Part shown: positions 4,224 through 38,118 of the stretch, in pieces
Numbering within the stretch: position 1 is the stretch's first letter
Layout of the letters: the number at the start of each line of letters is the position of its first letter
Notes under the pieces: model-generated
What the model was told of the DNA's origin: nothing
Database searches by the model: none
The model's input: the letters and a program-made list of their open reading frames with translations, nothing else
Assembly (NCBI GenBank): GCA_041599115.1
Contig: JBFHXF010000003.1
Span: 1 to 52,669 of the forward strand
Reading direction: 5' to 3'
Length of the DNA: 52,669 nt
DNA from: Acidimicrobiia bacterium
GTDB lineage: Bacteria; Actinomycetota; Acidimicrobiia; Spongiisociales; ZC4RG35
Program-made: the position numbers and the translations under genes

Positions 4224-4227
4224 GGAC

Positions 4228-5981
<1,754 letters not shown>

Positions 5982-8317: not shown

Positions 8318-8376
8318 GGGAATCCTTACGAGGGGAACGGGTCGCAATGGTAGGAGAAGCGTGAGCCAAACCCTAG

Positions 8377-14837: not shown

Positions 14838-14858
14838 CTGGTCACGTTAGAGCGCGCC

Positions 14859-20487: not shown

Positions 20488-20567
20488 CGCCGCATCATAA
20501 GACAGCTCGAGGGGCCCGGGTCCATCCGCTCGACCACCTGTGGAATCCCCCTAGCATTGGGTTGGTC

Positions 20568-21518: not shown

Positions 21519-21520
21519 CG

Positions 21521-22999: not shown

Positions 23000-23844
23000 G
23001 CCGCCTCGACGTCCGAAAGACCTACAAGCTCTATGTCGGGGGACAATTCCCTCGATCAGAATCAGGTCGCTCCTACCCGGCTCTGGGCCCGGAGAATCAG
23101 GTGCTCGCCAGGGTGGCATTGGCCAGCAGGAAGGACCTTCGTGACGCCGTCAGAGTGGCAAGAAAGGCGCAGCCCGACTGGGCGGGCCTGACCGGCTACC
23201 ACCGCGGGCAGATCCTCTACCGGGTTGCCGAGACACTGGAGGACCGGGCAGACTCGTTCGTCGGGCTGCTGCAGGACCTCGGCGCCACCCGATCCAAGGC
23301 AAGAACGGAGGTCGGCCGGTCAGTCGACAGAATCGTCTGGTATTCCGGTTGGGCGGACAAGTTTGCCCAGATCTACGGGAACCTCAACCCGGTGGCCGGA
23401 CCTTTCTTCAACATCTCTTCTCCCGAACCGACCGGCGTTGTCGGATTGATCGCACCGGAGGAGCCCGCTCTGCTCGGACTCGTCACCAATCTGGCCCCGA
23501 TCCTGGTCCCGGGCAATACCGTGGTCGCCCTGGTGTCAGAGAGCGCGCCCACGCCAGCGATCACCTTTGCCGAGGTCCTGAACTCGTCAGACCTACCCGG
23601 AGGAGTGGTCAACCTGTTGACCGGATCGAAGGATGAGCTGATCCCTTATCTCGCAGACCATATGGATGTCAACGCCGTCGCCGTCGGTGGCGCCACCCCG
23701 GACCAAACCGAGCGAGTCCAGGAGGGCGCGGTCCACAATGTCAAGCGGGTGGTTCTACCTCGAGCCGATGGGGTGATGCAGAGTCCGTACCAGATCGCCG
23801 CATTCACCGAGATCAAAACGGTTTGGCATCCCAAAGGGCTCTAG
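22996..23844 (+). CDS. Short aldehyde-dehydrogenase-family partner protein lacking the catalytic domain
   Basis: KTYKLYVGGQFPRSESGR...EIKTVWHPKG; the usual third gene of the deoC-ALDH-ALDH operon. Confidence 0.85.
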   Translation: MSRLDVRKTYKLYVGGQFPRSESGRSYPALGPENQVLARVALASRKDLRDAVRVARKAQPDWAGLTGYHRGQILYRVAETLEDRADSFVGLLQDLGATRSKARTEVGRSVDRIVWYSGWADKFAQIYGNLNPVAGPFFNISSPEPTGVVGLIAPEEPALLGLVTNLAPILVPGNTVVALVSESAPTPAITFAEVLNSSDLPGGVVNLLTGSKDELIPYLADHMDVNAVAVGGATPDQTERVQEGAVHNVKRVVLPRADGVMQSPYQIAAFTEIKTVWHPKGL

Positions 23845-23856
23845 GAGGAGTCTCGC

Positions 23857-25083
23857 ATGAGCCCAAGTCGTGCCGTGGTGGACATCGGCGATCCCGATCT
23901 CTACATCGATTCCGTTCCACATTCTCGATTTCGCAGGCTCCGTGACGAGCAGCCGCTCAGCTTCCACGAGGAGGCAGACGGATCCGGGTTTTGGGCGCTG
24001 GTCCGCTACCAAGACGTAGTCGATGTGGGTCGGGATTGGCGCACCTTCTCCTCGGCGCAGGGCAGCACTCTCGAGGAGCTGGACGAGGATCAACTCGCCG
24101 TGCGACGCTCGATGCTCGACCTCGACCCGCCCGCACACACCCGACTTCGCCGACTGGTGACACCGGCTTTCACACCCAAAGTGGTGCGCAGCTACGAGAC
24201 GGCCTTCCGAGAACTCACCCGGGATGTCATCGGCAAAACTGCGGCGCTCCGCCGATTCGACCTCGTCGAGGTCGTCTCCAAACAGCTCCCGGTGCTGTGG
24301 CTGTGTCGCCACCTTGGAGTCCCCGAGTCAGAGGCCGATCGGATGATCGAGTGGACCGACCGGATGCTGGGCCAGAGCGACCCCGAATATCTGGAAAGCG
24401 ACGATGACGATCGGACGCGATACGCCCCATTCGGCACGATCGCCGGGCTCGAGGCCTACCGGTACGCAGCCCAGTTGGCCGCCGAGCGGCGGAACGATCC
24501 CACCGATGACCTCATGTCGAAGATCCTCTTCGCCGAACCCAACGGCGAGCCACTTACCGACGCCGAGTTCCAGAATTTCTTCACCGTCCTGATGATCGCC
24601 GGTCAGGAGGCCTCGCGGCACGCCGTTTCTCATGGCACTCTCGCCTTGATCCAGAATCCCGAGCAGCTTGCTCGGCTGCAGGATGATTCGACGCTGATGA
24701 CCACCGCCACCGAGGAGATCATCAGGTGGGCGACGCCCATCTACCAGTTCCGACGCACCGCTACCACCGATGTGACGATGCACGGCGAGACGATCAGATC
24801 GGGAGACAAGGTGACGGTGTGGTACATCTCAGCCAATTTCGATGAAGCCATGTTCGATGACCCGCTGGCATTCGACGTTGGCCGAACTCCCAATGACCAC
24901 GTCGCCTTTGGAAAGGGCGGGCCCCATCTGTGCCTCGGCGCCGGTCTGGCGCGACTGCAGGTCCAAATCGCTTTCGAAGAACTGCTGCCGCTGATTCCTC
25001 GGATGAAGCTCGACGGGCCGGTCGAGAGGCTTCGCTCCAACTTCATCCACGGGATCAAGCACCTGCCGATTGTCATCGACTGA
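23857..25083 (+). CDS. Cytochrome P450 (CYP124/125-like), I-helix Thr replaced by Ala
   Basis: DPPAHTRLR, EEIIR (ExxR), FGKGGPHLCLG heme Cys; I-helix reads AGQEAS. Confidence 0.93.
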   Translation: MSPSRAVVDIGDPDLYIDSVPHSRFRRLRDEQPLSFHEEADGSGFWALVRYQDVVDVGRDWRTFSSAQGSTLEELDEDQLAVRRSMLDLDPPAHTRLRRLVTPAFTPKVVRSYETAFRELTRDVIGKTAALRRFDLVEVVSKQLPVLWLCRHLGVPESEADRMIEWTDRMLGQSDPEYLESDDDDRTRYAPFGTIAGLEAYRYAAQLAAERRNDPTDDLMSKILFAEPNGEPLTDAEFQNFFTVLMIAGQEASRHAVSHGTLALIQNPEQLARLQDDSTLMTTATEEIIRWATPIYQFRRTATTDVTMHGETIRSGDKVTVWYISANFDEAMFDDPLAFDVGRTPNDHVAFGKGGPHLCLGAGLARLQVQIAFEELLPLIPRMKLDGPVERLRSNFIHGIKHLPIVID

Positions 25084-25091
25084 CCCGCGGA

Positions 25092-26225
25092 CTATTTCTT
25101 CTGCATCCGCTCCAGAACTGCCCTGGTGAGACTCTCGATCTCGTCGGACGTGACCGCGCCCCTCTCCCACAAGACCTGGTTCACCGCACGCCGGACCCGC
25201 GATTCCTGTCGAAGAGAATCCAGGCCACCGCCCCTCTCATCGGCTCTGGTGCCCTGGCTCGGCGTGACCTTCTTCAGAGGGCCCGGGTCCGGGCTGGGGC
25301 CGTCGAAGCCGAGAGCCGCCACCCGTGAGCGCACTGTGTCAGCCGCCTTCTTCATGAGCCCCATCTCTTCGTCGGTGAGGGACAGTTCGACGACTTCGAT
25401 AACTCCCCGACCTCCCAGACGGGCCGGCACTCCGAGGTACACATCGGTGAGCCCGTATTCGCCACGCAGGTAGGCGCAGGCCGAAACGACCCGTCTCTCA
25501 TCGCCGGCAATGGCCGTGGCCATGTCGGCGATCGAAGCCGAAGGCGCCATCCAGGCCGAGCCCCTCGGCAGAAGCGCAACGATCTCCGCACCGCCGTTCC
25601 GGGTGCGCTCGACAAGTTCCTCCACGCGCGAGGCCGGAAGGAGCGAGGTCAGTGGGCGGCCCGCCACATTGGTCAACCGGGGCAACGGCACCATCGTCTC
25701 GCCGTGAGACCCAAGCACGATGGCGTCGACTTGGTCGGGATGGACACCGAGCTCGGCCGCAATGAAATACCGATAGCGGGAGGTATCGAGCTCACCCGCC
25801 ATTCCCACGACCTTCTCCGACGCAAAGCCACTGGCCTTCCACGCCAGAGTCGTCATCTCGTCGAGAGGGTTGGTGACGATGATCAAGATGGCGTTGGGCG
25901 ACCGCCGGCTCACTTCCTCGGTCACCCCCGCGACGATCTCGGAGTTCGTGGCCAAGAGGTCCGAGCGGCTCTGACCGGGCTTGCGGGGAAGGCCCGCGGT
26001 GATGATGACCAGATCCGAACCTTCCGTTGGTCCGTAGTCAGAGCTGCCGACGATGTCGATGGTGTGGCCCCGCAACGGGGCCGACTGAGCGAGGTCCAAG
26101 GCGACTGCCTGAGGCAGGCCTTCGACCACGTCGATGAGGGCCAACGATGTGGCAGTCCGATCCTCGAGCAGACGCAATGCGGTTGTGGCTCCAACCATGC
26201 CCGCGCCGACCACCGATACCTTCAT
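25092..26225 (-). CDS. mdh: LDH-like malate dehydrogenase with C-terminal encapsulation-peptide-like extension
   Basis: VGAGMVG, TAGLPRKPG.SRSDL (MDH Arg), VTNPLD, LDTSR, GSHG, RTRNGGAEIV; ~69-aa tail ending DEIESLTRAVLERMQKK. Confidence 0.88.
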   Translation of the reverse strand: MKVSVVGAGMVGATTALRLLEDRTATSLALIDVVEGLPQAVALDLAQSAPLRGHTIDIVGSSDYGPTEGSDLVIITAGLPRKPGQSRSDLLATNSEIVAGVTEEVSRRSPNAILIIVTNPLDEMTTLAWKASGFASEKVVGMAGELDTSRYRYFIAAELGVHPDQVDAIVLGSHGETMVPLPRLTNVAGRPLTSLLPASRVEELVERTRNGGAEIVALLPRGSAWMAPSASIADMATAIAGDERRVVSACAYLRGEYGLTDVYLGVPARLGGRGVIEVVELSLTDEEMGLMKKAADTVRSRVAALGFDGPSPDPGPLKKVTPSQGTRADERGGGLDSLRQESRVRRAVNQVLWERGAVTSDEIESLTRAVLERMQKK

Positions 26226-26539
26226 GACTCACCTTCACAGCCGCAAGAGTGTTCAACTCTGAGCATCACCGCCGTCACCAGATCCTCCAGGCCGGAGAGA
26301 TCGCGTCCGGTCTTCAGCAGGGCCCGGCGAGCGATCATTCGCACCTTCGACTCCTTCACCAATCGATGAAGGCCGGGCTTGTGGCTCGGTTCAGACCCGG
26401 TGGTCGTCTCGTCGAAGGCCACCCCCAACACCGCGGCCCGGTCCCTGGCCAGAGGGGTCACCAGCGTGTCGTCATCGACGGCGAGCCCGGTACCCGCCGC
26501 CGCAGCGGCTTCCACCTCGGCGCGGGTGACGACTCTCAT
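26222..26539 (-). CDS. Small BMC-associated protein (VTPLARD domain, encapsulation-like helices, CxC tail)
   Basis: MRVVTRAEVE...DTLVTPLARDRAAVLGV resembles the small domain of EutQ-type BMC accessory proteins; ATGA overlaps with both neighbours. Confidence 0.75.
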   Translation of the reverse strand: MRVVTRAEVEAAAAAGTGLAVDDDTLVTPLARDRAAVLGVAFDETTTGSEPSHKPGLHRLVKESKVRMIARRALLKTGRDLSGLEDLVTAVMLRVEHSCGCEGES

Positions 26540-27153
26540 GACTCTCGACCGGGTATTCCGGCCAGAGCTGCCGTGGCTGCGTCCCGTGCGGTGAGGATAT
26601 CGGACTCCAACCCCGAGAGAAAAAGGCGGCCAAAGCGGCCGGCATTGGAAACGTACACGATGTCGATATCGGCGCTCTTTTCGGCTTCGTTGGCGGCGAG
26701 GCTGGCATACGCCGCCGGGAAGACCTCCATGACGCACAGGGTCCGTCCCGGCACGAGCAGCGAGCCCCGGCGAAACTTGTTGATGAGTTGGGCCTGGTGC
26801 GGGTCGACGTTGGTGATCACCTGGCTCGAGGCCACGACCGGTCTGAAACGGTCTTCCTCGGACACGCCGAGGTAGTCGAGGATCGCCCCGCCCGCTGCTC
26901 TGACCGCGGCCTGGTCGTAGGAGTGCACCTCCAGCAGCCCGAACTCCCGTTCGATGAACTGGGTGGCGGGCCGGACCGGCGCCGCCTTCAAGGCAGCATC
27001 GGCCACGGCGAATATCTCATTCGAAGGTGCCATCTCCACGAACAACTCGGCCATCCCCGCAACCGGGACATCACCCTGAACGGTGGCCCCAACGTAGGCC
27101 GCATACTGGGGCTGCATGCGATCTATGAAAACGTAGGCCCTCAGTTCGCTCAT
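26536..27153 (-). CDS. BMC-T tandem-domain shell protein, double-stacking (CcmP/BMC-Tdp) type
   Basis: ELRAYVFIDRMQPQYAAY, EMAP, EREFGLLEVHS, PAAYASLAANEAEKSA, GRFGRLFLSG. Confidence 0.92.
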   Translation of the reverse strand: MSELRAYVFIDRMQPQYAAYVGATVQGDVPVAGMAELFVEMAPSNEIFAVADAALKAAPVRPATQFIEREFGLLEVHSYDQAAVRAAGGAILDYLGVSEEDRFRPVVASSQVITNVDPHQAQLINKFRRGSLLVPGRTLCVMEVFPAAYASLAANEAEKSADIDIVYVSNAGRFGRLFLSGLESDILTARDAATAALAGIPGRES

Positions 27154-27154
27154 C

Positions 27155-28636
27155 TCAGACTCCTTGCAACGGCCGGTCCAGACGGGCGAGGACCCGGTGG
27201 ATGAGGTCTTCTGCCATGGCCTGACCGTTATTGGCCAGGTTGGCCAGACCCGATGGGTGGGCATTCGAGGCGTTCATCAGTTCACGCCAATCGCGTATTC
27301 CGCGGGCGACCCTCTTGCGGTTGATGAGGTGCAGCGGTCCGATGTTGTCCGCTGTGATGGTGCCGCCCCAGGTACCGGTGCCCAACATGAAGGACGGCGA
27401 CAACCCCGCGGTGCCGCCCATTGCCCCGAAACAGGACGGGGTGTTGACCAGGACGCGGAAGGCTCTCATACGGGCGCCATATGCCGCCGCCACCCGCTGA
27501 TCGGATGCCCATATCGCCGCCGTGTGTCCGTCGCCGCCATAGCGGAGCAATTCTCCGGCGCGGGCAAAGCCCTCGTCTGTGCCGCCCGTCTCATACCACT
27601 TGAGGGTGGAGGTGAGGATCTCTTTCGATAGAGGATGTTCGGGACCTACCCCTTGTGGAGTCACCACCAGGACCGTCGTCGAGGGATCAACTCTCAGCCC
27701 CGCCCGCTCGGCGAGGACCTGGGGGGACTGTCCCACCAGCGCCGGATTGACCGCTCCCTCCGAGGTGAGAACGACGGCCTCAAGCCTCTTCGTCTCGTCG
27801 TCCGTGAGGAATCTCGCCCCCGCCATCTCGAAGGTCTGACGGGTGCGGATCGCAATGCCTTTGTCGACGACCACGGCCTGTTCGGAGGCACACGGGGTCC
27901 CGAAGTCGAAGGTGCAACTGGCGATGGTCCCCGTCACGCAGTCGTCCAGGTCGCCCACAGACTGGTGGATGTAGGAGGGCACGTTCCCCGGGCCCACTGC
28001 ATACGTCGGTTTGCCCGATGAGTAGGCCGCCTTGACCATGGCTATCGACCCTGTGGCGAGGACGACATCCACCGCCCAGTGCGACCAGAGCTCCTGAGTT
28101 CCTGGCAGCGACACCTCGGTCATGCACTGCACCAACCCCTCGGGAGCTCCGACGGATGAGAGGGCCTTCACCAGTGTTTCGGCGGCAGCAACTGACGCTT
28201 TCATGGCGCGCGGGTGGGGGGCCATGACGATCGCGTTGCGTGCCTTGACCGCGATGAGAGCCTTGAAGAAGACGGTTGATACCGGGTTGGTGGTTGGAAT
28301 CAGGGCGGCGATCACGCCCATCGGCTCGGCTATCTCGACAACCCCCGCCTCCGCCCCGGCCGAGATAACCCCGACGGTGTGGAGGGGGGCGATTGCCTCG
28401 TACACATCGATTGCGTTGAATAGATCCTTGATGAGCTTGTGATCAGACCGGCCATAACCGGTTACTTCCACCGCCAGCTCCGACAGCCCTGGAGAGGCTC
28501 GACGGGCGGCCTGGGACATGGCCTCTACCGCACGATCGACCTCTGGCTGCGAGGCGTCGGCCCAGAGCCGCGCCGCTTCCCTGGCTTTGACCGCGAGGTC
28601 GCGCGCCTGCTGAATCGACTGCAGGTCGGTGTCCAC
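27155..28636 (-). CDS. Acylating (CoA-dependent) aldehyde dehydrogenase, EutE/PduP/AdhE-N family, with C-terminal encapsulation peptide
   Basis: PTTNP.ST, HPRA, AYSSGKP, GPGN, FDFGTPCASEQ (catalytic Cys), EIL, GHTA, LGTGTWGG; tail MAEDLIHRVLARL. Confidence 0.93.
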   Translation of the reverse strand: MDTDLQSIQQARDLAVKAREAARLWADASQPEVDRAVEAMSQAARRASPGLSELAVEVTGYGRSDHKLIKDLFNAIDVYEAIAPLHTVGVISAGAEAGVVEIAEPMGVIAALIPTTNPVSTVFFKALIAVKARNAIVMAPHPRAMKASVAAAETLVKALSSVGAPEGLVQCMTEVSLPGTQELWSHWAVDVVLATGSIAMVKAAYSSGKPTYAVGPGNVPSYIHQSVGDLDDCVTGTIASCTFDFGTPCASEQAVVVDKGIAIRTRQTFEMAGARFLTDDETKRLEAVVLTSEGAVNPALVGQSPQVLAERAGLRVDPSTTVLVVTPQGVGPEHPLSKEILTSTLKWYETGGTDEGFARAGELLRYGGDGHTAAIWASDQRVAAAYGARMRAFRVLVNTPSCFGAMGGTAGLSPSFMLGTGTWGGTITADNIGPLHLINRKRVARGIRDWRELMNASNAHPSGLANLANNGQAMAEDLIHRVLARLDRPLQGV

Positions 28637-28639
28637 GGA

Positions 28640-29959
28640 CTACCTGTAGAAGCCGAACACGCGGCAAACGCCGGACTCAGCGCATCGCCCTCCGATGGCG
28701 CCGTGGTCCACGTGATGCAACATCTCGTCGGGACTCATGCCTGCGAGCCCGAGGCTCTTGATGGTTCTTCCCTCTTCCCACCAATCGATCCCGCACATGG
28801 CGGAGGCGAGATGAACCATCGAATCGATCGTCGGCGTGGGAACACCGAGAGCGCAGCCAAGGCTGGCAATGGGGACCAGTGAGTTGGGGACATCATCGAG
28901 GATGTGGTTCTGGGCGAGCAAGTGACTCGGAGCGGTGAACCCTTCGTAATAGGGGTTGCGCATCAAGGCGTCGTAGATGTCTTCCCCCACGACGTGGTAG
29001 CTCTCGCGATACCAATCGAGCAACGACCACACCTCTCGCAGACCCAAAGCCCGTGCCACCGACTGCTTCTCCTTGTCGATCTTGTCCATCACGAGGCTGG
29101 CAATGGTCCGGGTGACCTGGTGTTTGTAGAACTTGAGATCCTCCCCTGCCGCGGTTCGCTCGATCACCTGGGTGTTGAGCATCACCGTTCCCGGATGAAC
29201 GATGGGCGCGACGTTGTTGAGGCTGGTCTCCAAGACGTTCTGAGCCGGTTCGATTTGCGGGTAGAGATCACGCACATACTCCATCAAGCCGTCGTTGTCA
29301 GAGGCGGGCAGGGCCGCAGCCCGCATCCTGAACTTCTCCTTGAGGATCTCCACCTTGTTGGGACCGCGTCTCTCTGCGGCGTATATGAAGGTTTGGGTCT
29401 CTCCCAGATAGATCCTGGCCGAACAGGCGAACCGGTTGAGCGTCCGAGCGAATTCCAGGGCGCCCCCGGTCCGCCCGGGGTTGAGCAACACCCGTTGGCC
29501 GTCGCGCAGCATGGGAGCCAGCAGCGAGGCATAGACCCGATGAGACAAGGCGGGAGCCACCACCATGATCAGGTCGGCCCCCTTGACCGCCTCATCGAGG
29601 CTGCGAGTGACCTTGGCCACCTTGCCGAAGCCCTGGACCTCAGGCCCGATGACCTCCACCCCGCCCGACTCCTCGAGCGGCTCGATCTCCCAGGAAAAGG
29701 GCGACCAAACCGTCACCTGAAAACCGAGAATCGCCATGTGGCCGGCCATGGCCAGGCCACCGTTTCCGCCACCGAGTATGGAGACCTTCATCGACCCGGC
29801 CCTCTTGGCGCGTCGGGAGGGATCGACAGCTCGTTCGAACGTCACCGCACCACGAGACTGCATTGGGGCATCGGCCGGGACACGGGCCCCGGTTCCCGTC
29901 ACCCCATGTGTCTGAAGTTCGGCGATGATTGCATCGACTAGGTCGTCGTTGCCTGCCAC
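28640..29959 (-). CDS. NAD(P)-dependent opine (octopine/nopaline) dehydrogenase family protein with 56-aa N-terminal encapsulation-peptide extension
   Basis: ILGGGNGG, LNPGRTGGALEF, ETQT, LETSLNN..PIVHP, DKEK, DDVPNSLVP, GRT..SLGL. Strong SD AAGGAGG before GTG; N-terminus NDDLVDAIIAELQ. Confidence 0.88.
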   Translation of the reverse strand: MAGNDDLVDAIIAELQTHGVTGTGARVPADAPMQSRGAVTFERAVDPSRRAKRAGSMKVSILGGGNGGLAMAGHMAILGFQVTVWSPFSWEIEPLEESGGVEVIGPEVQGFGKVAKVTRSLDEAVKGADLIMVVAPALSHRVYASLLAPMLRDGQRVLLNPGRTGGALEFARTLNRFACSARIYLGETQTFIYAAERRGPNKVEILKEKFRMRAAALPASDNDGLMEYVRDLYPQIEPAQNVLETSLNNVAPIVHPGTVMLNTQVIERTAAGEDLKFYKHQVTRTIASLVMDKIDKEKQSVARALGLREVWSLLDWYRESYHVVGEDIYDALMRNPYYEGFTAPSHLLAQNHILDDVPNSLVPIASLGCALGVPTPTIDSMVHLASAMCGIDWWEEGRTIKSLGLAGMSPDEMLHHVDHGAIGGRCAESGVCRVFGFYR

Positions 29960-29974
29960 GGCGCCTCCTTGGTT

Positions 29975-30265
29975 TTACTTGCCCTGCAAGAGGATTGCTT
30001 CGGTGTCCTGATGAGGTCGTGGAATGACATGCACACTCACCAATTCGCCAACCTTGGCGGCAGCAGCGGCACCGGCGTCGGTGGCCGCCTTGACGGCTCC
30101 GACATCGCCTCGCACTATGACCGTGACGAGACCGCCTCCCACCATCTCCTTGGAGACCAGGGTTACGTTGGCAGCCTTCACCATCGCGTCGGCGGCCTCG
30201 ATTGCGCCAACCAATCCCTTAGTTTCAATCATTCCCACTGCGCTGAGACTTTGCCCGTCAGCCAT
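29975..30265 (-). CDS. BMC-H hexameric shell protein (EutM/PduA/CcmK family)
   Basis: [26 protein letters not shown]...GDVGAVKAA...VHVIPRPH. Confidence 0.97.
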
Positions 30266-30362: not shown

Positions 30363-30659
30363 TCAACGAACCTTGACATAGGTGGCTTCGTCGCCCGCCT
30401 GGATCGAGTCCAGGATGCTCACGATCGAGACATCTGTGGGTGTCGATCGGGTTGACTCGGGAACTCTTGCCGCCGATCCCGTGGCGACCAGCACGATCTC
30501 CCCGACCCCGGCGCCCACGGTGTCGACGGCGACGAAATGCTCACCGTCTTCTAGTTTTCCGTCAGTGCCGCACGGGGCGCACAGCATCAGCTTCTGTCCC
30601 GTCAGATGGGTATCTTTTGCTGTTGATACGACGGTACCGACGATCTTGGCCAGCCTCAT
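30363..30659 (-). CDS. BMC-P pentameric vertex protein (EutN/CcmL family)
   Basis: MRLAKIVGTVVSTAK...VAVDTVGAGVGEIVLVATGSAAR...DVSIVSILD. Confidence 0.96.
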   Translation of the reverse strand: MRLAKIVGTVVSTAKDTHLTGQKLMLCAPCGTDGKLEDGEHFVAVDTVGAGVGEIVLVATGSAARVPESTRSTPTDVSIVSILDSIQAGDEATYVKVR

Positions 30660-30669
30660 TTCGCCTCCA

Positions 30670-31986
30670 TCAAAAACTCGCCATGTAACGGTCGACCTCG
30701 GTCCTGGTCACGGTGTTCACTGGGTCCTCCTCGTCGGAACTCATCATGAAGTCGTATTCCCGCTGGGCCTGTCCCACCAAGGTCTCGATGAGCATCGGAT
30801 GAAACAGGCCCTTGACCATAGATGACTTGTTGAAGCGCTCGATCGCCTCGGGGGTGCTGGTGGGCAACGGCTCGGCATCGGCCAATTCGTAGGCGTTGCC
30901 CGTCGTCATCGGACCCGGCTCCAACTCGTTGACCACACCATCTATCCCCGCGGCGATCTGTCCACCCACCAGGAGGTACGGGTTGCTGTCGGCAGTTCCA
31001 TCGCGCTGTTCGATCCGGACCGCGTTGGGTTCGCCCTCGATGACCCGGATCCCCAAGGTCCTGGTGTCGTGGCCCCATGCGGTGTTTACCGGGCAGAACG
31101 TATAGGGCTGACGTCTCTTCATGGCGTTCGGAGTCGGCGCGGCCAAAAGAGCGAGGTCTGCCATGTGACGTTGCAGACCACCCAGGTAATGAAGTCCCAG
31201 GGTGGAGAGCCGCCCATCGTCGGAGAAGGCATTGACGCCGTCCCTCCAGAGTGATTGGTGGACGTGGAAGCCGGAGCCCGACTCGTCGAAGAACGGTTTT
31301 GCCATGAAGGTGGCCAGAAGACCATGGCCGGCGGCGATCTCCTTGACGCAGTTGCGAAAGAGCATTGCGTTGTCGGCGGCGCTGACTGCGTCGGAGTAGC
31401 GCAGGTTCACTTCGAATTGACCGGCCGAGTACTCGGGGTTGGAGACTTCCACCTGTATCCCGAACTCGGTACAGAGATTGCGAATCGGCCCGACAACGTA
31501 TTCGAATCGGCTTCCTCTAGCAAGGCCGTACACCGCGATACCGCTGTCGAGTGGGCGCTTGGTCTCGGGGTCGAGAAGATAGAACTCGAGTTCGGTTCCG
31601 ACTTTGACCTCATACCCGAGGTCCCTGGCCCGGTCCACTGCGGTGAGGAGCACCGCTCGAGGATCCACCGGCACCGGCCCGCCGTCGGGAATCTCTTCGG
31701 CACGGCACAGCGTGAGAACAACGCCCTCCTCCCAGGGAACTTTCCTCAGGGTGCCTGGAATGGGCACTATGTGGACATCGGGATACCCGTTGTCGAAGTT
31801 GCCATAGGGGGTATCCCAGATGTCAGAGACCATATCCATCTGGAATAGCGCGTTTGCCAGGGCAACCCCGTGGTGCGCCGTGCCCTCCCACATGTTGGCC
31901 TGCAACCTCTTGCCTCGGGCTATCCCGTTCAGGTCACCGATGGCGAGTACGACGGTATGGGTGCCTTCGGGGAGAGAGTCCATCAT
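30670..31986 (-). CDS. Glutamine-synthetase-family gamma-glutamyl:amine ligase (GlnA4/PuuA-like)
   Basis: DLNGIARGK, ELEFYL, EYSAGQFE, ATFMAKP, GSGFHVHQS, RIEQR..ADSNPY. Flap region reads QPYTFCP, with Phe where ammonium-using GS has Glu (PGYEAP). Confidence 0.85.
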   Translation of the reverse strand: MMDSLPEGTHTVVLAIGDLNGIARGKRLQANMWEGTAHHGVALANALFQMDMVSDIWDTPYGNFDNGYPDVHIVPIPGTLRKVPWEEGVVLTLCRAEEIPDGGPVPVDPRAVLLTAVDRARDLGYEVKVGTELEFYLLDPETKRPLDSGIAVYGLARGSRFEYVVGPIRNLCTEFGIQVEVSNPEYSAGQFEVNLRYSDAVSAADNAMLFRNCVKEIAAGHGLLATFMAKPFFDESGSGFHVHQSLWRDGVNAFSDDGRLSTLGLHYLGGLQRHMADLALLAAPTPNAMKRRQPYTFCPVNTAWGHDTRTLGIRVIEGEPNAVRIEQRDGTADSNPYLLVGGQIAAGIDGVVNELEPGPMTTGNAYELADAEPLPTSTPEAIERFNKSSMVKGLFHPMLIETLVGQAQREYDFMMSSDEEDPVNTVTRTEVDRYMASF

Positions 31987-32080: not shown

Positions 32081-33502
32081 CTACCACGTGAACTCCTTGT
32101 CGATCCCGGCGAGTTTCACTCCGGTGAAGGCGGAAGCCTGCAAACTGAGGGCGCGCAGGTCCTCCTTCTCCAGGTTGTGAACACTCGACTTACCGCAAGC
32201 CTTGGCCAGAAGGCTGATTTCCATGGTCCAAGCCGTGAGAAAACGCGCTACTCGCTCGGCGCCGGCGGCAACGTCCATCCGCTCTTCCAGGGCGGGCTCC
32301 TGTGTCGTGATTCCGACGGGGCAGAGACCGGTGTGGCAATGGTGGCAGCGGCCGGGTGCGGTGCCGAGCTTCTCGTAATCCTCGAAATACCGGGGTGAAT
32401 TGCAGCCCAGCGCCATCAGTGAGGCGAATCCGATCATCACTGCGTCGGCGCCCAAGGCGAGACACTTGGCGGCGTCGGTGCCTGACCGAATACCGCCGGC
32501 AGCGACGAGCTTGACCTCATCGGCCAGTCCGGTCTCCTCGAGTGCCTCCCGGGCGGCGGATATGGCGGACATCGTGGGGACCCCGGTGTGGTCCAGCAAG
32601 AGCTCCGGGGATGCGCCGGTCCCACCCTCCGCCCCATCGAGGACAATCACATCGGCTCCGGCTTTGGCGGCAACGGCTACGTCGAAACGCGGGCGGGTTG
32701 CGCCCATCTTGACGAAGATCGGGATTCGATAGTCGGTCGCCTCCCGGAGCTCCTCGATCTTGACCTTGAGATCGTCACCACCAAGGAAGTCGGGGTGCCG
32801 CACCGTTGACCGCTGGTCGACTCCCGCCGGAAGGGTGCGCATGCCGGCCACTCGCTCCGATACCTTCATCCCGAGCAGAAGGCCGCCGGTCCCCGGTTTT
32901 GCTCCCTGTCCGACGACGATTTCGATCCCGTCGACCATCCGGAGATGGTCGAGGTCCAGCATGTAGCGGCTTGGGGTCATCTGATAGACGAGACGTTGGG
33001 ATGCCGTCCGCTCATCCTCCAGCATGCCCCCTTCACCGGTGCAGGTCATGCTCCCCACCTTGGACGCGCCATAGCCCAAGGCCGCTTTGGCCGAGGCGGA
33101 CAGGGCGCCGAAGGACATCGAGGCGATGTAGATGGGGATGTCCAGCTCGAGGGGTTGTTCGACAAGACCCGGCCGGTCGCCGAGCACGGTTGTGGTGTCA
33201 CAGCTCTCGCGGTAACCCTCCAGGGGAAGCCGGGTCATTGTGGCCGGGACGAAGACCAAGTCATCGAGTGTGGGAAACCGGGGATTGAAAGCCGAAAAGC
33301 CCCTTATCTGATAGCGGCCGAGCTGGGCGATGGCGTGTGCCTCGGCGATGGCCTCGGGAGTCCATCTCGGCGAATTGCCGCGCTCGTAGGACGACGGCAC
33401 GCCCGCCGGGCGGCCCGGAATGCTGCCGTCAGAGAACCCGATGAGTTCCTCGCTCGGCATCTCGAAGGGGTAGGTGTACTCGTTGCTCAAATCATCAGCC
33501 AT
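32081..33502 (-). CDS. FMN-binding glutamate-synthase-family protein (GlxD/MgsC-like)
   Basis: SMSFGALS, TGEGG, GQGAKPGTGG, GGIRSG.D.AKCLALGAD, CHHCHTGLCPVGITTQ; start MADDLS at 33502. Confidence 0.9.
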   Translation of the reverse strand: MADDLSNEYTYPFEMPSEELIGFSDGSIPGRPAGVPSSYERGNSPRWTPEAIAEAHAIAQLGRYQIRGFSAFNPRFPTLDDLVFVPATMTRLPLEGYRESCDTTTVLGDRPGLVEQPLELDIPIYIASMSFGALSASAKAALGYGASKVGSMTCTGEGGMLEDERTASQRLVYQMTPSRYMLDLDHLRMVDGIEIVVGQGAKPGTGGLLLGMKVSERVAGMRTLPAGVDQRSTVRHPDFLGGDDLKVKIEELREATDYRIPIFVKMGATRPRFDVAVAAKAGADVIVLDGAEGGTGASPELLLDHTGVPTMSAISAAREALEETGLADEVKLVAAGGIRSGTDAAKCLALGADAVMIGFASLMALGCNSPRYFEDYEKLGTAPGRCHHCHTGLCPVGITTQEPALEERMDVAAGAERVARFLTAWTMEISLLAKACGKSSVHNLEKEDLRALSLQASAFTGVKLAGIDKEFTW

Positions 33503-34185
33503 GCTTTTGAATCCCTGCTCGTGAAGTACCACAACCCCTGGGCGGAGATGATCTTCTTCCAATCGCGGTTGCTGCTTTCCAGACTGCGGGTGGAGAGCAG
33601 CTTTTCCACGTCTTCGACCTCGTGGGACTCGGGCTCCACGACTTTCGAGTCGACGCCGAGCGACCCGATCGGGCCGGCCACCCAGACCTCACCCCCCCAC
33701 AGCGAATCGGCGGTGGCCTCGCCTGCCCCGCCCAGGGCGATGATGCGGCCGGCGTGACCCATGAAACCGCTCAGGTAGCCGATGCGACCCTCGACGATGA
33801 TGTCGCCACCTTTCATCGCCACCCCGCAACGAGGGCCGGCATCTCCCTTTATGTGGATGAGCCCGCCCCGCATCGAGGCGCCAACGCTCATCCCCGCATA
33901 GCCGTGGACCACTATCTCTCCCGAGGCCATCGCCTCGCCCAGGCCCCAACCGGCGTCACGGGTGATCTCGATGTCGGCCCCGTTGTTCAAGCCGCCGCAG
34001 TAGTAACCGACGCTTCCCTCGAAGGTCACCCGAGCCCCATGGGGGAGGCCGATCCCGAGGTTGTGCCGGGACAGGGTGTTGGTGACCACTACATCCTGGC
34101 CCATCTCGAGGGCGGCACGGATTGCCAGGTTGATCTCTCTGGTCGGCCGATCACCGGCTTCTATGTTGACAACGTCTCCCATCAC
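33487..34185 (-). CDS. GXGXG glutamate synthase alpha-C-like protein (GlxC/MgsB-like)
   Basis: GSVGYYCGG, G.AMASG, AGPRCGVAMKGGDIIV, GFMGHAG beta-helix repeats. Confidence 0.88.
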   Translation of the reverse strand: MMGDVVNIEAGDRPTREINLAIRAALEMGQDVVVTNTLSRHNLGIGLPHGARVTFEGSVGYYCGGLNNGADIEITRDAGWGLGEAMASGEIVVHGYAGMSVGASMRGGLIHIKGDAGPRCGVAMKGGDIIVEGRIGYLSGFMGHAGRIIALGGAGEATADSLWGGEVWVAGPIGSLGVDSKVVEPESHEVEDVEKLLSTRSLESSNRDWKKIISAQGLWYFTSRDSKAWLMI

Positions 34186-35123
34186 ACCCTCTCCGCCACT
34201 TTTATGTCCCAGGTGGCGGTCCGATCCGGTCCGTCATAATTGATCACGTCGACCTCCCGGCGATAGACCTTGCGTAGCGCCTGCTCCTCGGTCGCCACGG
34301 CCAGGTCGGGACCGTCCTCGACGACGGCTACGGGCTTGATGGCCCATCGATCCTTGGCCAGCCCAAGCCGATTCGGCGTCGCTATCAAGTAGGTGAAGAC
34401 CCCGTCGAGAGCACGAAGGCTGAGAGTCAGGGCTTCATCGAGACCCCTGCCGTGAGCCATTTGGTCGGAGATCCAGATGGCAATCAGTTCCGAATCGTTG
34501 TCGGTCTTGAAACGATATCCCTGACGGGTCAGCCTGTCTCGGAGCAGGTGGTAATTGGTCAGCTGACCATTATGGACGATGGCCACATCGGGGAATGGCC
34601 GAGCCCAGAACGGGTGACTGGCCGTCGGCGACACCCGGGATTCGGTGGCCATGCGGGCGTTGGCGATGCCATGACTTCCGATGAAATCGGCGACCGGATG
34701 CTTGGCCGCCACATCCAGGGCGCTCCCGACATCCTTGATGATCTCGAGGGACTTGCCTACCGACTGAATCTCGAAACGGGGAAGGTCGTCGGCGACGGCG
34801 AGCCACTCGGCGAGGCCCGCCGAAGGCTCCGACATGACCATCCTCACCGAGACGTGTTGCTGGGTGGTGGTGTCCCATGTCGGATCCTCGAGAAAGTCGC
34901 CTCCGAACCCGCGTAGCACCGAGAGGAACCGATCCAAATCCGACGACAGCAGATCCCGATCGCTGGTCACCACCCGGACGACGTACCCCGCGTCTCGGGG
35001 AGCGCCGTAGAGAGCGAATCCCGTGGAGTCTCCGCCACGGTGCACCTGGGCCTGCATCATGGCGACCAGGTCTGAGCCGATGGGCCCAGGCTCAGCAAGG
35101 ATTCGGCCGGCAATACCGCACAT
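34182..35123 (-). CDS. Class II (Ntn) glutamine amidotransferase (GlxB/MgsA-like)
   Basis: MCGIAG N-terminal Cys, HRGGDSTG, RMATES, HPF, HNGQLTN, TDNDSE; SD GGAGGAG. Confidence 0.9.
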   Translation of the reverse strand: MCGIAGRILAEPGPIGSDLVAMMQAQVHRGGDSTGFALYGAPRDAGYVVRVVTSDRDLLSSDLDRFLSVLRGFGGDFLEDPTWDTTTQQHVSVRMVMSEPSAGLAEWLAVADDLPRFEIQSVGKSLEIIKDVGSALDVAAKHPVADFIGSHGIANARMATESRVSPTASHPFWARPFPDVAIVHNGQLTNYHLLRDRLTRQGYRFKTDNDSELIAIWISDQMAHGRGLDEALTLSLRALDGVFTYLIATPNRLGLAKDRWAIKPVAVVEDGPDLAVATEEQALRKVYRREVDVINYDGPDRTATWDIKVAERV

Positions 35124-35148
35124 CAGGTCTCCTCCGCCCGGAGAATAG

Positions 35149-35171
35149 CTTTTGTATACAGTACACAAAAG
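35149..35171. promoter_or_regulatory. Palindromic operator candidate upstream of the glxB-like gene
   Basis: CTTTTGTATACAGTACACAAAAG is a near-perfect 23-bp inverted repeat. It is AT-rich in a GC-rich context and contains a TACTGT -10-like hexamer on the minus strand. Confidence 0.7.
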
Positions 35172-35178
35172 TTGGGGA

Positions 35179-35772
35179 TCAGAATCTGAGAATTCTCTCG
35201 ACCAGGCCCAGTTGGGACTTCGCCTCGTCGAGCCGGATGGGCACGGTGTAAGGGGGGAGCGGCGGGATGAACACGGCGGTGATGGTCCCCGGCAGTGAAA
35301 TCAACTCCACTTGCCGACCCCCGACCGCCTCCATGACACGAAGCTTTTTCAGCTCGGAGCCTTCGATAAGACTGCGGATCCGGGTATCGCCGGAGAGCGC
35401 CGCTGCCAGGGCTGCGCTCTGAGCACCTCCCGATCGCACGGAGAACCGTTTCTTGTCGAATCGATAGGTCAGGATGTCCGGATTCGCCGCGACACTCCCC
35501 CGGCGCCCCACCCACATGGTGTCGATGAGCACGCCGAACAGACGGGTCTGGCCCTTGAACCCGACCTCAATGACCACATCGTCGTCGAGGTTTATCCGGG
35601 CCGAGCGAAACTCGGGATCGACCTGCACGTCTATCGATCGGCTCTGCAGCGCCGTGATCGGCTCTTGCAGGATTCGCCGCCGCCGACCCTTGTAGAGCAA
35701 CGAGGCACGACGTCGCAAAGAGAACGGAGCCGACCCGTCGGGTCGGCTCCGTTCAGACCGGTTGGGTGTCAC
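35179..35772 (-). CDS. Hypothetical protein, DUF3156-like
   Basis: Overlaps the permease stop. C-terminal pattern (SGG..AALAAALSGD..LKKLRV..VELISLPG..PPLPPYTVPI) recalls DUF3156 proteins found next to APC amine permeases; family call is from memory. Confidence 0.6.
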   Translation of the reverse strand: MTPNRSERSRPDGSAPFSLRRRASLLYKGRRRRILQEPITALQSRSIDVQVDPEFRSARINLDDDVVIEVGFKGQTRLFGVLIDTMWVGRRGSVAANPDILTYRFDKKRFSVRSGGAQSAALAAALSGDTRIRSLIEGSELKKLRVMEAVGGRQVELISLPGTITAVFIPPLPPYTVPIRLDEAKSQLGLVERILRF

Positions 35773-37190
35773 AGCTTCTGGTGGACTTCTTCCTCGAGAT
35801 GCGAAGCGACGCCGGAGGTCCCTCGCAAGGCGTAGGAAACGATCGCCGCAACCAGCGACCCGGCGAATATCCAGAGCGACCGGACCCCGAAGAGGTCATG
35901 GGCGCCTTGGAATGCGTAATAGATCGCCAGGACCGTGAGCACGATACCGACGACCGGCACCCAGAGTTGGAGCTGGAACGGCCGGTCGACGTCGGGATTG
36001 GCGTAGCGCGAGGTGATCACCATCACGTGATAGAGCACGTAGATGATCAGCCAGGCATACGCCGCCGAATAGACCAGTTCCAACACGTCTCCGAATGCGA
36101 GCGCCGCCCAGGTGTAGACCACACCCGTGACGATGATCGCGGTCCACGGTGTCCGAAAGCGAGGGTGCAGGGAGCTGAACACTCGCGACACCGGGCCGAA
36201 GAAGTGACCATTACGCGAAACGCCGTAGAGCACCCTGGGCATGGCGGCATAGACGATCGCCATCGAGGCCAATGTGGCCAGGAACGTCGCCAGCGCCATC
36301 AAGGTACGTCCGGTGTCACCGAACATGGCCTGCCCCACCGCCAGTTGGGCGCAGCCGCCTTCGCATCCTGCGGCGCTGGTAGCCGTCGCCAACCAGTCAC
36401 TGGTCGGCTGGGTTCCACCTACGCCGAAGCCCATCAGCAGCGATGTGAACAGGATCACCACCATGGCGGCGATGATCCCACGGGGGATATTCCTGTTCGG
36501 GTCCTTGGTCTCCTCGGCCAGTGGGGCAACGAACTCGATGCCGACGAAGCTCCAGAATGCCAGGGCCACGCCACCGGCCATGACAGTCGTCCAATCGAAC
36601 ATCCCGACGCCGGCATTCCAGTTGCCGGCGCTCCACCCCCCGGTGTCACCCAGGCCGAAAAAGCCGGCCGCGCCGAAGAACCAGCGCAGCCCCAGCATGC
36701 CGATGATCAGGTACAACTCGACCTTTGCCAGCACCTCGATCCCGAGCAGGTTGGGGATGATCGCCAGGATCGTCATAGCGACGATCCAGGGCCAGACGTC
36801 ACCCGTCGCGCTGAAGAGCGCCTGGAACCCGAAGGCACCGGCCAGGGTCTCCCCTGCACCGGCGAAGGCAAACATGCCATAGAAGGCGAAGGCCAGGAAG
36901 ATTCCCGTTATACCCGCCAGGGCACCCGTTCCCGGAACCGACGCCGCTCCGTAGTCGTACAGGGCTCCCGCCTTGGGGTACGTCGTGGCAAGCTCGGCCA
37001 CCGCCAAACCCAGCAACATGTTGATCACAAAGGCGACGACCAGCGCTGCAATGAAAGCGGTGCCGATCGAGAACCAACCGTTGAAGTCGCTGACCAGGGT
37101 CGTTGCCGCCACGATGAGTCCGACTCCTGCGACGAATACGTCACGTGTGCCGAGGGCTTTGATCAAGCCTGACTCTGTGGACTGTGTCAT
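35769..37190 (-). CDS. APC family amino acid/amine permease
   Basis: About 12 hydrophobic segments, ELATTYPKAG, FVGIEFVAPLAEETKDP..NIPRG, RPF; SD GAGGAGG before MTQSTE. Confidence 0.92.
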   Translation of the reverse strand: MTQSTESGLIKALGTRDVFVAGVGLIVAATTLVSDFNGWFSIGTAFIAALVVAFVINMLLGLAVAELATTYPKAGALYDYGAASVPGTGALAGITGIFLAFAFYGMFAFAGAGETLAGAFGFQALFSATGDVWPWIVAMTILAIIPNLLGIEVLAKVELYLIIGMLGLRWFFGAAGFFGLGDTGGWSAGNWNAGVGMFDWTTVMAGGVALAFWSFVGIEFVAPLAEETKDPNRNIPRGIIAAMVVILFTSLLMGFGVGGTQPTSDWLATATSAAGCEGGCAQLAVGQAMFGDTGRTLMALATFLATLASMAIVYAAMPRVLYGVSRNGHFFGPVSRVFSSLHPRFRTPWTAIIVTGVVYTWAALAFGDVLELVYSAAYAWLIIYVLYHVMVITSRYANPDVDRPFQLQLWVPVVGIVLTVLAIYYAFQGAHDLFGVRSLWIFAGSLVAAIVSYALRGTSGVASHLEEEVHQKL

Positions 37191-37246
37191 AGGCCTCCTC
37201 CCGTTCCGGCCGCTCTGTCCCACGGCACTCGCCGTAGCGGCCGATA

Positions 37247-37263
37247 TTGGATACAGTATGCAT
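37247..37263. promoter_or_regulatory. Second operator candidate between the permease and gntR
   Basis: TTGGATACAGTATGCAT shares the palindromic core TG-N-ATAC-A-GTAY-N-CA with the site at 35149-35171. Confidence 0.65.
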
Positions 37264-37398
37264 CTGGGACCGTCCCTGCAACTGATCCTGAAAACCCGAT
37301 CAGGGGGGAGCAGCGGCGAAACATGGATCCGGCTGCCCTTATCGGGGGGAGATCGGTATCCTTCCCGGGTAAAACGAAGCAACCGCGAGCCCTCAGAT

Positions 37399-38118
37399 AT
37401 GAGCCCTCGATTCGTCAAAATCGAGCACACCCAGCCCCGTCTCGTTGATCTGGTCTACGAGCAGGTGCTGAGCGCCATAATGTCCGGAGAGATAGGCCCC
37501 GGTGACCGGCTCATTCAGGAGACTCTCGCCGAGGAGATCAACGTGAGCAGGACGCCGGTCCGGGAGGCACTGCTGCGTCTTGAGCGTGAGGGGATCATAG
37601 AACTATCGGGTCGGCGTGGTTTTCGGGTTCGGGACATCAGTGATCGCGAGATCGAGGACATATACCAGGCCCGCCAGGCGATCGAGGGCTATGCAGCCCG
37701 GTTGTTGGCCGATCGGGGAACCGAGGTCGGCCTGAGGAGAATCAGCGATGTCTTCAAGGAGCAGGTTCTGACGACGCAAGATTCCGTCTCGGCGGCGTTC
37801 CGGGCCAATCGAATCCTCCACCGGGCCATAGTCGAGGCCACCGGCAACGCCTACCTCCTCGAGTTGTTCGACGGGATCTGGGGGCGAAGCGTGGCCATCC
37901 GACTCTATGCCGACCTGTTCAACGCCGACGACTTCGCCGAATCCTTCCTCGAAGGCCATGCCGGACTGCTGGAGGCGTTGTCGTCCCGTGACGGCGACCG
38001 GGCTGCAGAGGCCATGGAGGAACATATTCGCTCGGGTTTGAAGGCCCATCTTGCCGCTCACTCTTGGTGGCGGGAGGGAGCTTCTCAGGCCGAGAAGGTG
38101 CCTTCCGCCAGAACCTGA
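37399..38118 (+). CDS. GntR family regulator (FadR/FCD subfamily)
   Basis: LAEEINVSRTPVREALLRLE HTH; FCD N..LH..I..ATGN, H..LLEAL..RD..AMEEHI. Divergent from the permease. Confidence 0.92.
   Translation: MSPRFVKIEHTQPRLVDLVYEQVLSAIMSGEIGPGDRLIQETLAEEINVSRTPVREALLRLEREGIIELSGRRGFRVRDISDREIEDIYQARQAIEGYAARLLADRGTEVGLRRISDVFKEQVLTTQDSVSAAFRANRILHRAIVEATGNAYLLELFDGIWGRSVAIRLYADLFNADDFAESFLEGHAGLLEALSSRDGDRAAEAMEEHIRSGLKAHLAAHSWWREGASQAEKVPSART

Follow-up and report, generated by a model that had tools for sequence, protein, structure and literature searches.

A candidate encapsulated N-alkylglutamate dehydrogenase of the opine dehydrogenase fold in a bacterial microcompartment locus of Acidimicrobiia

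Which protein could form the aldehyde in a metabolosome that has an aldehyde dehydrogenase and no recognised aldehyde-forming (signature) enzyme, as is described for many metabolosomes in the main text of a catalogue (PMC8217296)? The question is raised by a 52,669-nucleotide stretch of DNA from an Acidimicrobiia bacterium (assembly GCA_041599115.1, contig JBFHXF010000003.1, positions 1 to 52,669 of the forward strand), which is called the window below. In its bacterial microcompartment (BMC) operon, a gene of the opine dehydrogenase family lies among the shell genes, and a first-pass annotation had read its product (the dehydrogenase) as an opine dehydrogenase with an encapsulation peptide and as a new signature enzyme. 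We propose, with the balance of probability standing level, that the dehydrogenase is an encapsulated, NAD(P)-dependent N-alkylglutamate dehydrogenase of the opine dehydrogenase fold that would release an aldehyde and glutamate. On this proposal, the locus would be a metabolosome whose signature enzyme is of a new class and whose activation module works in the cytosol. The gene and its parts are as follows.

28640..29959, minus strand: opine-dehydrogenase-family gene, 439 amino acids, GTG start; the single open reading frame (ORF) matching these coordinates exactly
29964..29970, minus strand: Shine-Dalgarno sequence AAGGAGG, 4 nucleotides before the GTG and 15 nucleotides past the BMC-H stop codon, read directly from the sequence
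29909..29950, minus strand: proposed encapsulation-peptide helix NDDLVDAIIAELQT, residues 4-17; a helix in the AF2 model, with the motif conserved in 40 divergent homologues
29840..29908, minus strand: variable low-complexity linker, residues 18-40, without secondary structure (block-mean pLDDT 49-61)
29792..29839, minus strand: conserved pre-Rossmann segment FERAVDPSRRAKRAGS, residues 41-56, conserved in close homologues (block pLDDT about 91)
28700..29791, minus strand: catalytic core of Rossmann and Octopine_DH helical domains, residues 57-420, with H255, E196, R163, N351 and H352, from the 1BG6 alignment
28643..28699, minus strand: C-terminal tail GGRCAESGVCRVFGFYR with C426 and C432, residues 421-439, past the end of the 1BG6 alignment

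The domain searches placed the dehydrogenase in the opine dehydrogenase family (PF02317, CENDH/OcDH type). Pfam Octopine_DH matched residues 239-389 above its gathering score (121.6 bits, 3.7e-35; cut-off 30), and the Rossmann-type model NAD_Gly3P_dh_N matched residues 58-157, in agreement with the earlier placing of the Rossmann fold from residue 57, where MKVSILGGGNGG starts. The glycine-rich loop GGGNGG occupies residues 63-68, and G63, G65 and G68 are invariant. Among solved structures, Arthrobacter CENDH (1BG6) was the closest by sequence (2.2e-65; residues 59-409 align to its residues 7-350), and scallop octopine dehydrogenase came next (1e-14). An AF2 model built on 140 sequences (mean pLDDT 93.8, core confident from about residue 41) has the two-domain fold of the family: Foldseek ranked 1bg6 first (TM 0.93 normalised by target, root-mean-square deviation 2.0, 34% identity), and after it octopine, yersinopine, staphylopine and pseudopaline dehydrogenases. 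One Octopine_DH gene and one shell locus were found in the genome (2.39 Mb, 94% complete).

The long start had been proposed on the strength of a Shine-Dalgarno sequence, which does stand at 29964-29970. In addition, Leu takes the place of the unconserved Met57 in most orthologues, which therefore lack the short start. Codon-position GC content in the N-extension did not tell the frames apart, and conservation was relied on in its stead.

An encapsulation peptide, as defined by Kinney et al., is a terminal extension on compartment-linked homologues, composed of a short amphipathic helix and a poorly conserved linker (as given in PMC4594438). The N-terminus of the dehydrogenase agrees with this published definition in three of its four sequence criteria (PMC4594438). 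The helix that had been noted ahead of the core is present in the AF2 model, where it spans residues 4-17; its 14 residues (mean pLDDT about 74-77 per 10-residue block) compare with the 15-20 residues of predicted alpha-helix in the definition. The linker is modelled with low pLDDT at residues 18-40, and its length and composition vary among homologues, which have 41 to 103 residues, rich in Pro, Ala and Gly, ahead of the Rossmann strand. Residues 41-56 (FERAVDPSRRAKRAGS) are conserved and confidently modelled and are therefore part of the fold; the earlier description of a low-complexity linker thus applies to residues 18-40 and not to residues 41-56. Between the window and the relative L001, helix codons 4-15 differ by 7 synonymous codon changes, with D9E and I12V as the only amino acid changes, indicating purifying selection on the helix codons. 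Comparison of this kind was the original basis for defining encapsulation peptides (PMC4594438).

To compare the N-terminus with that of other family members, relatives were collected in three ways: a word-indexed search, in which 1830 of the 8000 candidates scored had E<=1e-5, an exhaustive search of the representatives (3425 at E<=0.001) and a scan of one genome per species (536 relatives). The best 80 of these 536 loci were kept for neighbourhood comparison and searched by tblastn with the window's own proteins. Shell-linked loci, with shell genes, an aldehyde dehydrogenase and a glutamine-synthetase-like (GS-like) gene, numbered 12 (L001-L003, L005, L006, L008, L009, L012-L016), spanning Acidimicrobiia, Thermoleophilia/Gaiellales, Desulfovibrio, Clostridia, Thermincola, Thermoanaerobacteraceae and metagenome-assembled genomes of Deltaproteobacteria. 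The dehydrogenase is present in 12/12, but these loci were found by searching with it. The gene order BMC-P, BMC-H, dehydrogenase, aldehyde dehydrogenase, BMC-T is shared by the window and 7 of the 12. The dehydrogenase thus has the position of a metabolosome signature enzyme, within a shell-gene locus conserved across 12 loci.

The helix-plus-linker N-terminus was found in all 12 shell-linked loci. A strict helix pattern, [ILVM][ILV]xx[ILV][ILVM]xx[ILM], sought throughout the open frame that precedes the Rossmann motif, was matched in 10/12 (L005 and L006 have the variant MYSDILDEL), in both of the loci cut by a contig end where shell genes would lie (L004, L017), and in 0/71 other loci; four loci were not assessable and were left out of the counts. 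The 71 include helix-less orthologue loci from Thermoleophilia (4) and metagenomes (8), together with relatives at <=45% identity. The helix is therefore absent from the non-BMC homologues compared, the outcome that the first-pass annotation needed in order to stand, where "non-BMC" means no shell genes within 10 kb and nothing more. The four Thermoleophilia loci (58-61% identity) have an N-terminus of 37-49 residues without the helix. Among the eight metagenome loci (55-59% identity), three have full 10-kb flanks, and none of these three has shell, aldehyde dehydrogenase or synthase-like genes; the contexts of this helix-less subclade at about 57% identity are variable and gave no functional hint.

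A quick maximum-likelihood tree (49 rows, LG+G4, SH-aLRT support only) placed all shell-linked forms within one 27-row clade (SH-aLRT 100) with a long stem, whose basal members are all shell-linked. Nested in this clade are two helix-less groups, each a single branch, with no shell genes within 10 kb. Given that rooting, the history of the helix reads as one gain and two losses.

The C-terminal tail changed along with the N-terminus. The extra tail with two Cys that had been reported is present as GGRCAESGVCRVFGFYR and is modelled less confidently than the core (residues 421-439, pLDDT 70-81). Both C426 and C432 are invariant in 40 helix-bearing homologues; the helix-less Thermoleophilia forms have GGEARLHGVARRLPWFG in place of the pair, and the second helix-less subclade lacks it. 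Among 120 listed protein clusters, the Cys-pair pattern was found in 51/55 with the helix motif, 5/5 with a fused N-domain, 5/50 with neither and 1/10 that are N-truncated; the four helix-bearing clusters missing the pattern have two Cys at another spacing. The Cys pair thus co-varies with shell linkage in these alignments.

The neighbouring shell and cargo genes, between two of which (BMC-H and the acylating aldehyde dehydrogenase) the dehydrogenase had rightly been placed, are as follows.

29975..30265, minus strand: BMC-H shell protein (Pfam BMC 3.3e-29)
30363..30659, minus strand: BMC-P (EutN/CcmL) shell vertex protein (Pfam EutN_CcmL 3.8e-27)
26536..27153, minus strand: BMC-T, tandem BMC-domain, CcmP-like protein (Pfam BMC; NCBIfam CcmP 259 bits, below the 340 cut-off)
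27155..28636, minus strand: acylating aldehyde dehydrogenase, which scores 460 bits with the NCBIfam model acetaldehyde dehydrogenase (acetylating), short of its cut-off of 620
27173-27214, minus strand: its C-terminal peptide AEDLIHRVLARL (hydrophobic moment 0.72; 1.9% of shuffles reach it)
26222..26539, minus strand: 105-amino-acid protein with an N-domain of roughly 45 amino acids, a linker, LEDLVTAVMLRV and a C-terminal CGC
26258-26299, minus strand: peptide-like LEDLVTAVMLRV of the 105-amino-acid protein, from the translation
25092..26225, minus strand: malate dehydrogenase (MDH), 377 amino acids (TIGR01763 368 bits against a cut-off of 351.85)
25104-25145, minus strand: EIESLTRAVLERM, a peptide-like helix ending the roughly 70-amino-acid C-terminal extension of MDH, from the translation

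The segment DDLVDAIIAEL of the dehydrogenase resembles the C-terminal peptide-like helices of the aldehyde dehydrogenase, MDH and the 105-amino-acid protein, and these four proteins are the only ones in the operon with such helices. Among the cargo, the peptide is constant across the shell-linked loci in the dehydrogenase alone; the aldehyde dehydrogenase bears one in 6/13 loci, including the window, and MDH in 4 (the window, L002, L008 and L009), its extension being absent in L003, L005 and L006. Prediction of a complex of three BMC-H copies with residues 1-45 of the dehydrogenase gave no answer (score 0.00) and weighs neither way. The reading of the N-terminal extension as an encapsulation peptide that would load the dehydrogenase into the shell is well supported by these comparisons, and the protein itself is probably loaded.

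The 105-amino-acid protein is conserved in L001-L003, L005 and L006. It has no Pfam family, and the protein atlas gave hypothetical clusters and a sub-threshold EutQ lead (0.82). It starts with an N-domain of roughly 45 residues (pattern MR.VT..EV....G....L....IVTP.A.D.A..LGV), likewise without a Pfam family. The same N-domain replaces the helix at the N-terminus of the dehydrogenase in six homologues (P0095, P0099, P0100, P0111, P0113, P0114), and it is also fused to a 655-amino-acid aldehyde dehydrogenase in a Thermoleophilia shell locus (L154:4878-6845, minus strand). It may be another shell-association module. Cys motifs were seen at the C-termini of two putative cargo proteins, namely, C426/C432 in the dehydrogenase and CGC in the 105-amino-acid protein, whose CxC (26225-26257, minus strand) is conserved in L001-L003, L005 and L006.

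To examine the active site, 264 relatives were aligned, of which 121 form the clade at >=48% identity (helix-bearing and helix-less forms) and 143 are others. The catalytic His is kept: H255 aligns to CENDH His202 (OcDH His212), and His is present in 263/264 relatives. Four further positions are as follows.

E196: R143 in 1BG6; Glu in 121/121 of the clade, Arg in 128/143 other relatives
N351: R292 in 1BG6 (OcDH Arg324); Asn in 110 and His in 11 of the clade, Arg in 134/143 other relatives
H352: Y293 in 1BG6; His in 108/121 of the clade, Tyr in 107 and Phe in 19 other relatives
R163: A111 in 1BG6; Arg in 121/121 of the clade and in 65/143 other relatives

The conserved Arg pair of opine dehydrogenases (CENDH R143 and R292) is thus not kept, and the active site of the clade is, by this alignment, remodelled relative to that of ordinary opine dehydrogenases. 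CENDH has been evolved in the laboratory toward carboxylate-free ketones and amines, and the best variant carries seven changes, A111M/K156T/N198H/Y259M/Y280L/R292V/Y293H (PMC6033044). The natural changes of the clade fall at two of the same positions (R292 and Y293), and one of them is identical (Tyr to His), whereas the other five positions do not match: the dehydrogenase keeps K209, Y317 and Y338, and position 163 is Arg. Because residues 351 and 352 correspond to engineered sites, their natural changes would fit a substrate whose oxidised carbon bears no carboxylate.

Upstream of the shell genes lies a second set of genes, with the following features.

30670..31986, minus strand: GS-like ligase (Pfam Gln-synt_C 4.9e-84), without a peptide-like extension and below all NCBIfam equivalog cut-offs
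32081..33562, minus strand: FMN subunit, a homologue of the glutamate synthase FMN domain, MgsC-like (Pfam Glu_synthase 1e-91)
33487..34185, minus strand: GXGXG-domain subunit, MgsB-like (Pfam GXGXG 6e-16)
34182..35168, minus strand: class II amidotransferase subunit, MgsA-like (Pfam GATase_7, GATase_6), with MCGIAG as its probable start
35769..37430, minus strand: APC-family permease (Pfam AA_permease_2 3.3e-28), reaching no NCBIfam equivalog

The order of the whole operon, all on the minus strand, is APC permease, amidotransferase, GXGXG, FMN, GS-like, BMC-P, BMC-H, dehydrogenase, aldehyde dehydrogenase, BMC-T, 105-amino-acid protein and MDH. Three adjacent genes match the domains of N-methylglutamate synthase subunits, a likeness in domain composition only. 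By eye, neither the GS-like ligase nor the three synthase-like proteins has a peptide-like extension. The GS-like ligase scored 220 bits against the 429 of the GlnA cut-off (NCBIfam). Elsewhere in the genome there are a canonical GltB (1593 amino acids, 1584 bits; C8), a canonical GlnA (653 bits; C78) and a housekeeping MDH (550 bits; C253), so the ligase, synthase-like and MDH copies of the locus are dedicated paralogues.

A GS-like gene adjoins the dehydrogenase in 12/12 shell-linked loci, and the three synthase-like genes are present in 11 of them, the twelfth (L001) being a contig of 4.9 kb that breaks off within the GS-like gene. Tandem GS-like genes also immediately precede the helix-less Thermoleophilia orthologues, which supports a ligase-dehydrogenase link even where no shell genes are near. 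With its peptide in every shell-linked locus, a constant GS-like partner and the loss of two arginines, the dehydrogenase fits the signature-enzyme idea of the first-pass annotation, and no other peptide-bearing candidate for aldehyde formation was found in the operon. No sarcosine-oxidase-like MgdABCD was seen in the operon; a SoxD search of the 94%-complete genome gave no match but was silent in the control genomes too, and so carries no weight.

In L007, three tandem GS-like genes (3674-9890) are followed by a helix-less dehydrogenase, the synthase-like genes lie 11 kb off in that genome, and the large subunit of a B12-type diol dehydratase (13578-15005) lies 2.3 kb downstream of the dehydrogenase. 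A different Thermoleophilia shell locus, without an opine-type dehydrogenase, was seen in L154 (G002:C16:8000-27999) and L155 (G003:C5:165000-184999), with a helix-less dehydrogenase copy 27-37 kb away. Its genes encode BMC-T, a glutathione S-transferase, BMC-H, an aldehyde dehydrogenase with the N-domain, three synthase-like proteins, an ornithine cyclodeaminase/mu-crystallin protein, an MFS transporter with a cNMP domain, a GS-like protein, a saccharopine dehydrogenase C-domain (Sacchrp_dh_C) protein, a P450 and a GntR regulator. Enzymes of the ornithine cyclodeaminase/mu-crystallin and saccharopine dehydrogenase classes act on secondary amines, and their presence therefore fits a modular last step.

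Based on these results, the following route is proposed. The permease would bring in a small primary amine, which the GS-like ligase, with ATP, would convert in the cytosol to a gamma-glutamyl amide. The three-part glutamate-synthase-like enzyme would turn this amide into an N-alkyl-L-glutamate. In the shell, the dehydrogenase would oxidise the alkyl-side C-N bond to give glutamate and an aldehyde, and the co-encapsulated acylating aldehyde dehydrogenase would convert the aldehyde to an acyl-CoA. NAD+ would be regenerated in the window organism by the encapsulated second MDH, reducing oxaloacetate, and in L013 and L015 perhaps through PduS-like flavoproteins. The substrate, the side of the amine that is oxidised and the cofactor are what we infer. 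The amine is probably C1-C3; the nearest model of the aldehyde dehydrogenase, the acetylating acetaldehyde dehydrogenase, suggests a C2 aldehyde. The extension of the locus MDH likewise suggests that this protein is encapsulated and serves an oxaloacetate/malate route for NAD+ recycling. More tentatively, and at somewhat less than even probability, the loci as a group may be amine-utilisation microcompartments found across phyla, in which ATP-dependent activation onto glutamate in the cytosol would be followed by aldehyde release in the shell by the encapsulated, remodelled opine-dehydrogenase-fold enzyme, with a luminal MDH as oxaloacetate/malate shuttle in Acidimicrobiia.

Several observations weigh against this proposal. 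The characterised opine dehydrogenases covered in PMC6033044 oxidise the carboxylate-bearing carbon and yield a keto acid, not an aldehyde, so the alkyl-side regiochemistry would be without precedent in this fold. OcDH Arg324, the equivalent of N351, is described as an NADH sensor touching the pyrophosphate and not as a carboxylate binder (PMC2924402), and the loss of Arg at 351 therefore need not concern the substrate; OcDH Gln118, at the position of the clade-invariant R163, binds the pyruvate carboxylate (PMC6033044). The GS-like ligase scored 138 bits with the solved GmaS, versus 178 with ordinary glutamine synthetase and 204 with 5dm3, and none of the four accessory proteins reached an NCBIfam equivalog cut-off. 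The Thermincola FMN subunit (L015:16900-18315) carries at its N-terminus a 4Fe-4S ferredoxin domain that recalls the ferredoxin-type glutamate synthases and is absent from the window copy. The amphipathicity that the first-pass annotation ascribed to the N-terminal helix is modest and statistically weak: the hydrophobic moment of residues 4-17 is 0.30, a value reached by 27% of shuffles. Across homologues, the moment of the 11-residue helix core was above its own shuffle mean in 40/40 (median 0.40 versus 0.26 for shuffles), with p<0.05 in 4/40. Finally, all three searched Thermoleophilia genomes with a helix-less orthologue have a BMC-H on the same contig, 27-51 kb away; that BMC-H belongs to a locus of different make-up.

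Some of these points would also suit an encapsulated enzyme acting on an opine-like secondary amine from outside the cell, for example an N-carboxyalkyl or N-alkyl amino acid brought in by the permease, the GS-like and synthase-like genes then assimilating the freed nitrogen. Opine cleavage is the known chemistry of the family (PMC6033044), an APC-family permease stands at the head of the operon, and both the ferredoxin domain of the Thermincola subunit, as in true glutamate synthases, and the lack of any match to an N-methylglutamate-pathway equivalog among the accessory proteins point the same way. We nevertheless consider this explanation unlikely, since nitrogen assimilation is already provided for by the canonical GlnA and the 1593-amino-acid GltB elsewhere in the genome, and since the GS-like protein stays at 220 bits where GlnA calls for 429 and adjoins the dehydrogenase even in loci without shell genes. 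The loss of both conserved Arg also argues against a second substrate carboxylate.

The dehydrogenase could instead work inside the shell in the reductive direction, as the opine dehydrogenases of invertebrate muscle do, using NADH to join a carbonyl compound to an amino acid or amine and so recycling NAD+. Animal opine dehydrogenases are physiologically reductive (PMC2924402; PMC6033044), and metabolosomes require NAD+ recycling (PMC4207490). The recycling slot, however, is filled by variable partners, a peptide-bearing MDH in four loci and a PduS-like flavoprotein in L013 and L015, whereas the dehydrogenase is the constant element across loci and the operon lacks any other peptide-bearing protein that could form the aldehyde; a reductive recycler is thus quite improbable. 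In the two loci with flavoproteins, from Clostridia and Thermincola (L013, 13323-15267; L015, 13062-16573), the PduS-like protein (Nuo51 FMN, 4Fe-4S and RnfC_N domains) and an extra tandem BMC protein replace MDH. L015 also has PduL, and L013 has a sigma-54 activator upstream. PduL was not found in the 94%-complete genome of the window, where Pta lies on another contig.

That the N-terminal helix serves oligomerisation or regulation, and only happens to accompany the operon, is very improbable. The weak hydrophobic moment would fit such a role, but the extension matches three of the four sequence criteria of the published definition (PMC4594438), is similar to the peptides at the C-termini of the operon's aldehyde dehydrogenase and MDH, and was lost twice along with shell linkage. 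Least probable of all, and hardly to be expected, is oxidation of N-alkylglutamate on the glutamate side to 2-oxoglutarate and amine, as by nopaline-type and SbnB-like enzymes (or use of another substrate, with the aldehyde coming from elsewhere), for although this is the regiochemistry expected from the family (PMC6033044) and R163 could hold the glutamate-derived carboxylate, it would make a futile cycle with the ATP-dependent ligase and leave the encapsulated acylating aldehyde dehydrogenase without an aldehyde source.

Upstream of the permease, a 358-amino-acid ORF (38167-39243, minus strand) was matched by neither Pfam nor NCBIfam. Another operon (20466-25083, plus strand) converges on the shell operon and encodes a DeoC/LacD-type aldolase with an N-extension of roughly 95 residues, a 533-amino-acid aldehyde dehydrogenase, a 282-amino-acid ORF matching just the first half of the aldehyde dehydrogenase family, and a cytochrome P450. 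A P450 is also found near the Thermoleophilia shell locus.

No paper connecting microcompartments with opine dehydrogenase, PF02317 or genes of the N-methylglutamate pathway came up in a literature search. Such genes go unmentioned in the main texts of the BMC catalogues (PMC8217296, PMC4207490) and of PMC6620236, and the one "opine" in PMC7593272 is a verb; the supplementary tables of the catalogues may list the locus under a named type without a known function. Should the N-alkylglutamate dehydrogenase proposal hold, it would supply loci of this type with a candidate signature enzyme and a pathway that can be tested, the opine dehydrogenase fold with a new reaction, that of an aldehyde-forming N-alkylglutamate dehydrogenase, and the N-methylglutamate-type module with an NAD-linked, compartmentalised last step. 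If the amine were methylamine, the organelle would be one that confines formaldehyde. An encapsulated MDH would be an unusual solution for cofactor recycling, and the natural Arg-to-Asn/Glu and Tyr-to-His changes could guide the engineering of reductive aminases.

The N-methylglutamate pathway is the nearest known counterpart of the proposed route. There, GmaS and MgsABC turn an amine into an N-alkylglutamate, and the usual last enzyme is the sarcosine-oxidase-like MgdABCD. Both systems have a GS-like ligase and proteins with amidotransferase, GXGXG and FMN glutamate synthase domains. In contrast, the GS-like protein of the locus is not specifically GmaS-like, and the last step here would be performed by an NAD(P)-linked enzyme of the opine dehydrogenase fold, inside a shell, rather than by MgdABCD. 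A chemical precedent for that step is saccharopine dehydrogenase (NAD+, L-glutamate-forming), in which cleavage of an N-alkylated glutamate to glutamate and an aldehyde is coupled to NAD, and whose fold and family are unrelated to those of the opine-type dehydrogenase. CENDH (1BG6) shares the two-domain fold and the catalytic His, but it has no microcompartment linkage; the dehydrogenase is longer by 56 residues at the N-terminus and by a two-Cys tail of 30 residues at the C-terminus, and has Glu, Asn and His where CENDH has R143, R292 and Y293. The engineered CENDH enzymes are laboratory variants, whereas the changes in the clade are natural. Finally, with EutBC, PduCDE and the class II aldolase the dehydrogenase shares a terminal helix (about 15-20 residues) and a poorly conserved linker that occur in compartment-linked homologues only (PMC4594438); it differs from them in enzyme class and in that its substrate would be pre-activated in the cytosol by ATP-dependent conjugation to glutamate.

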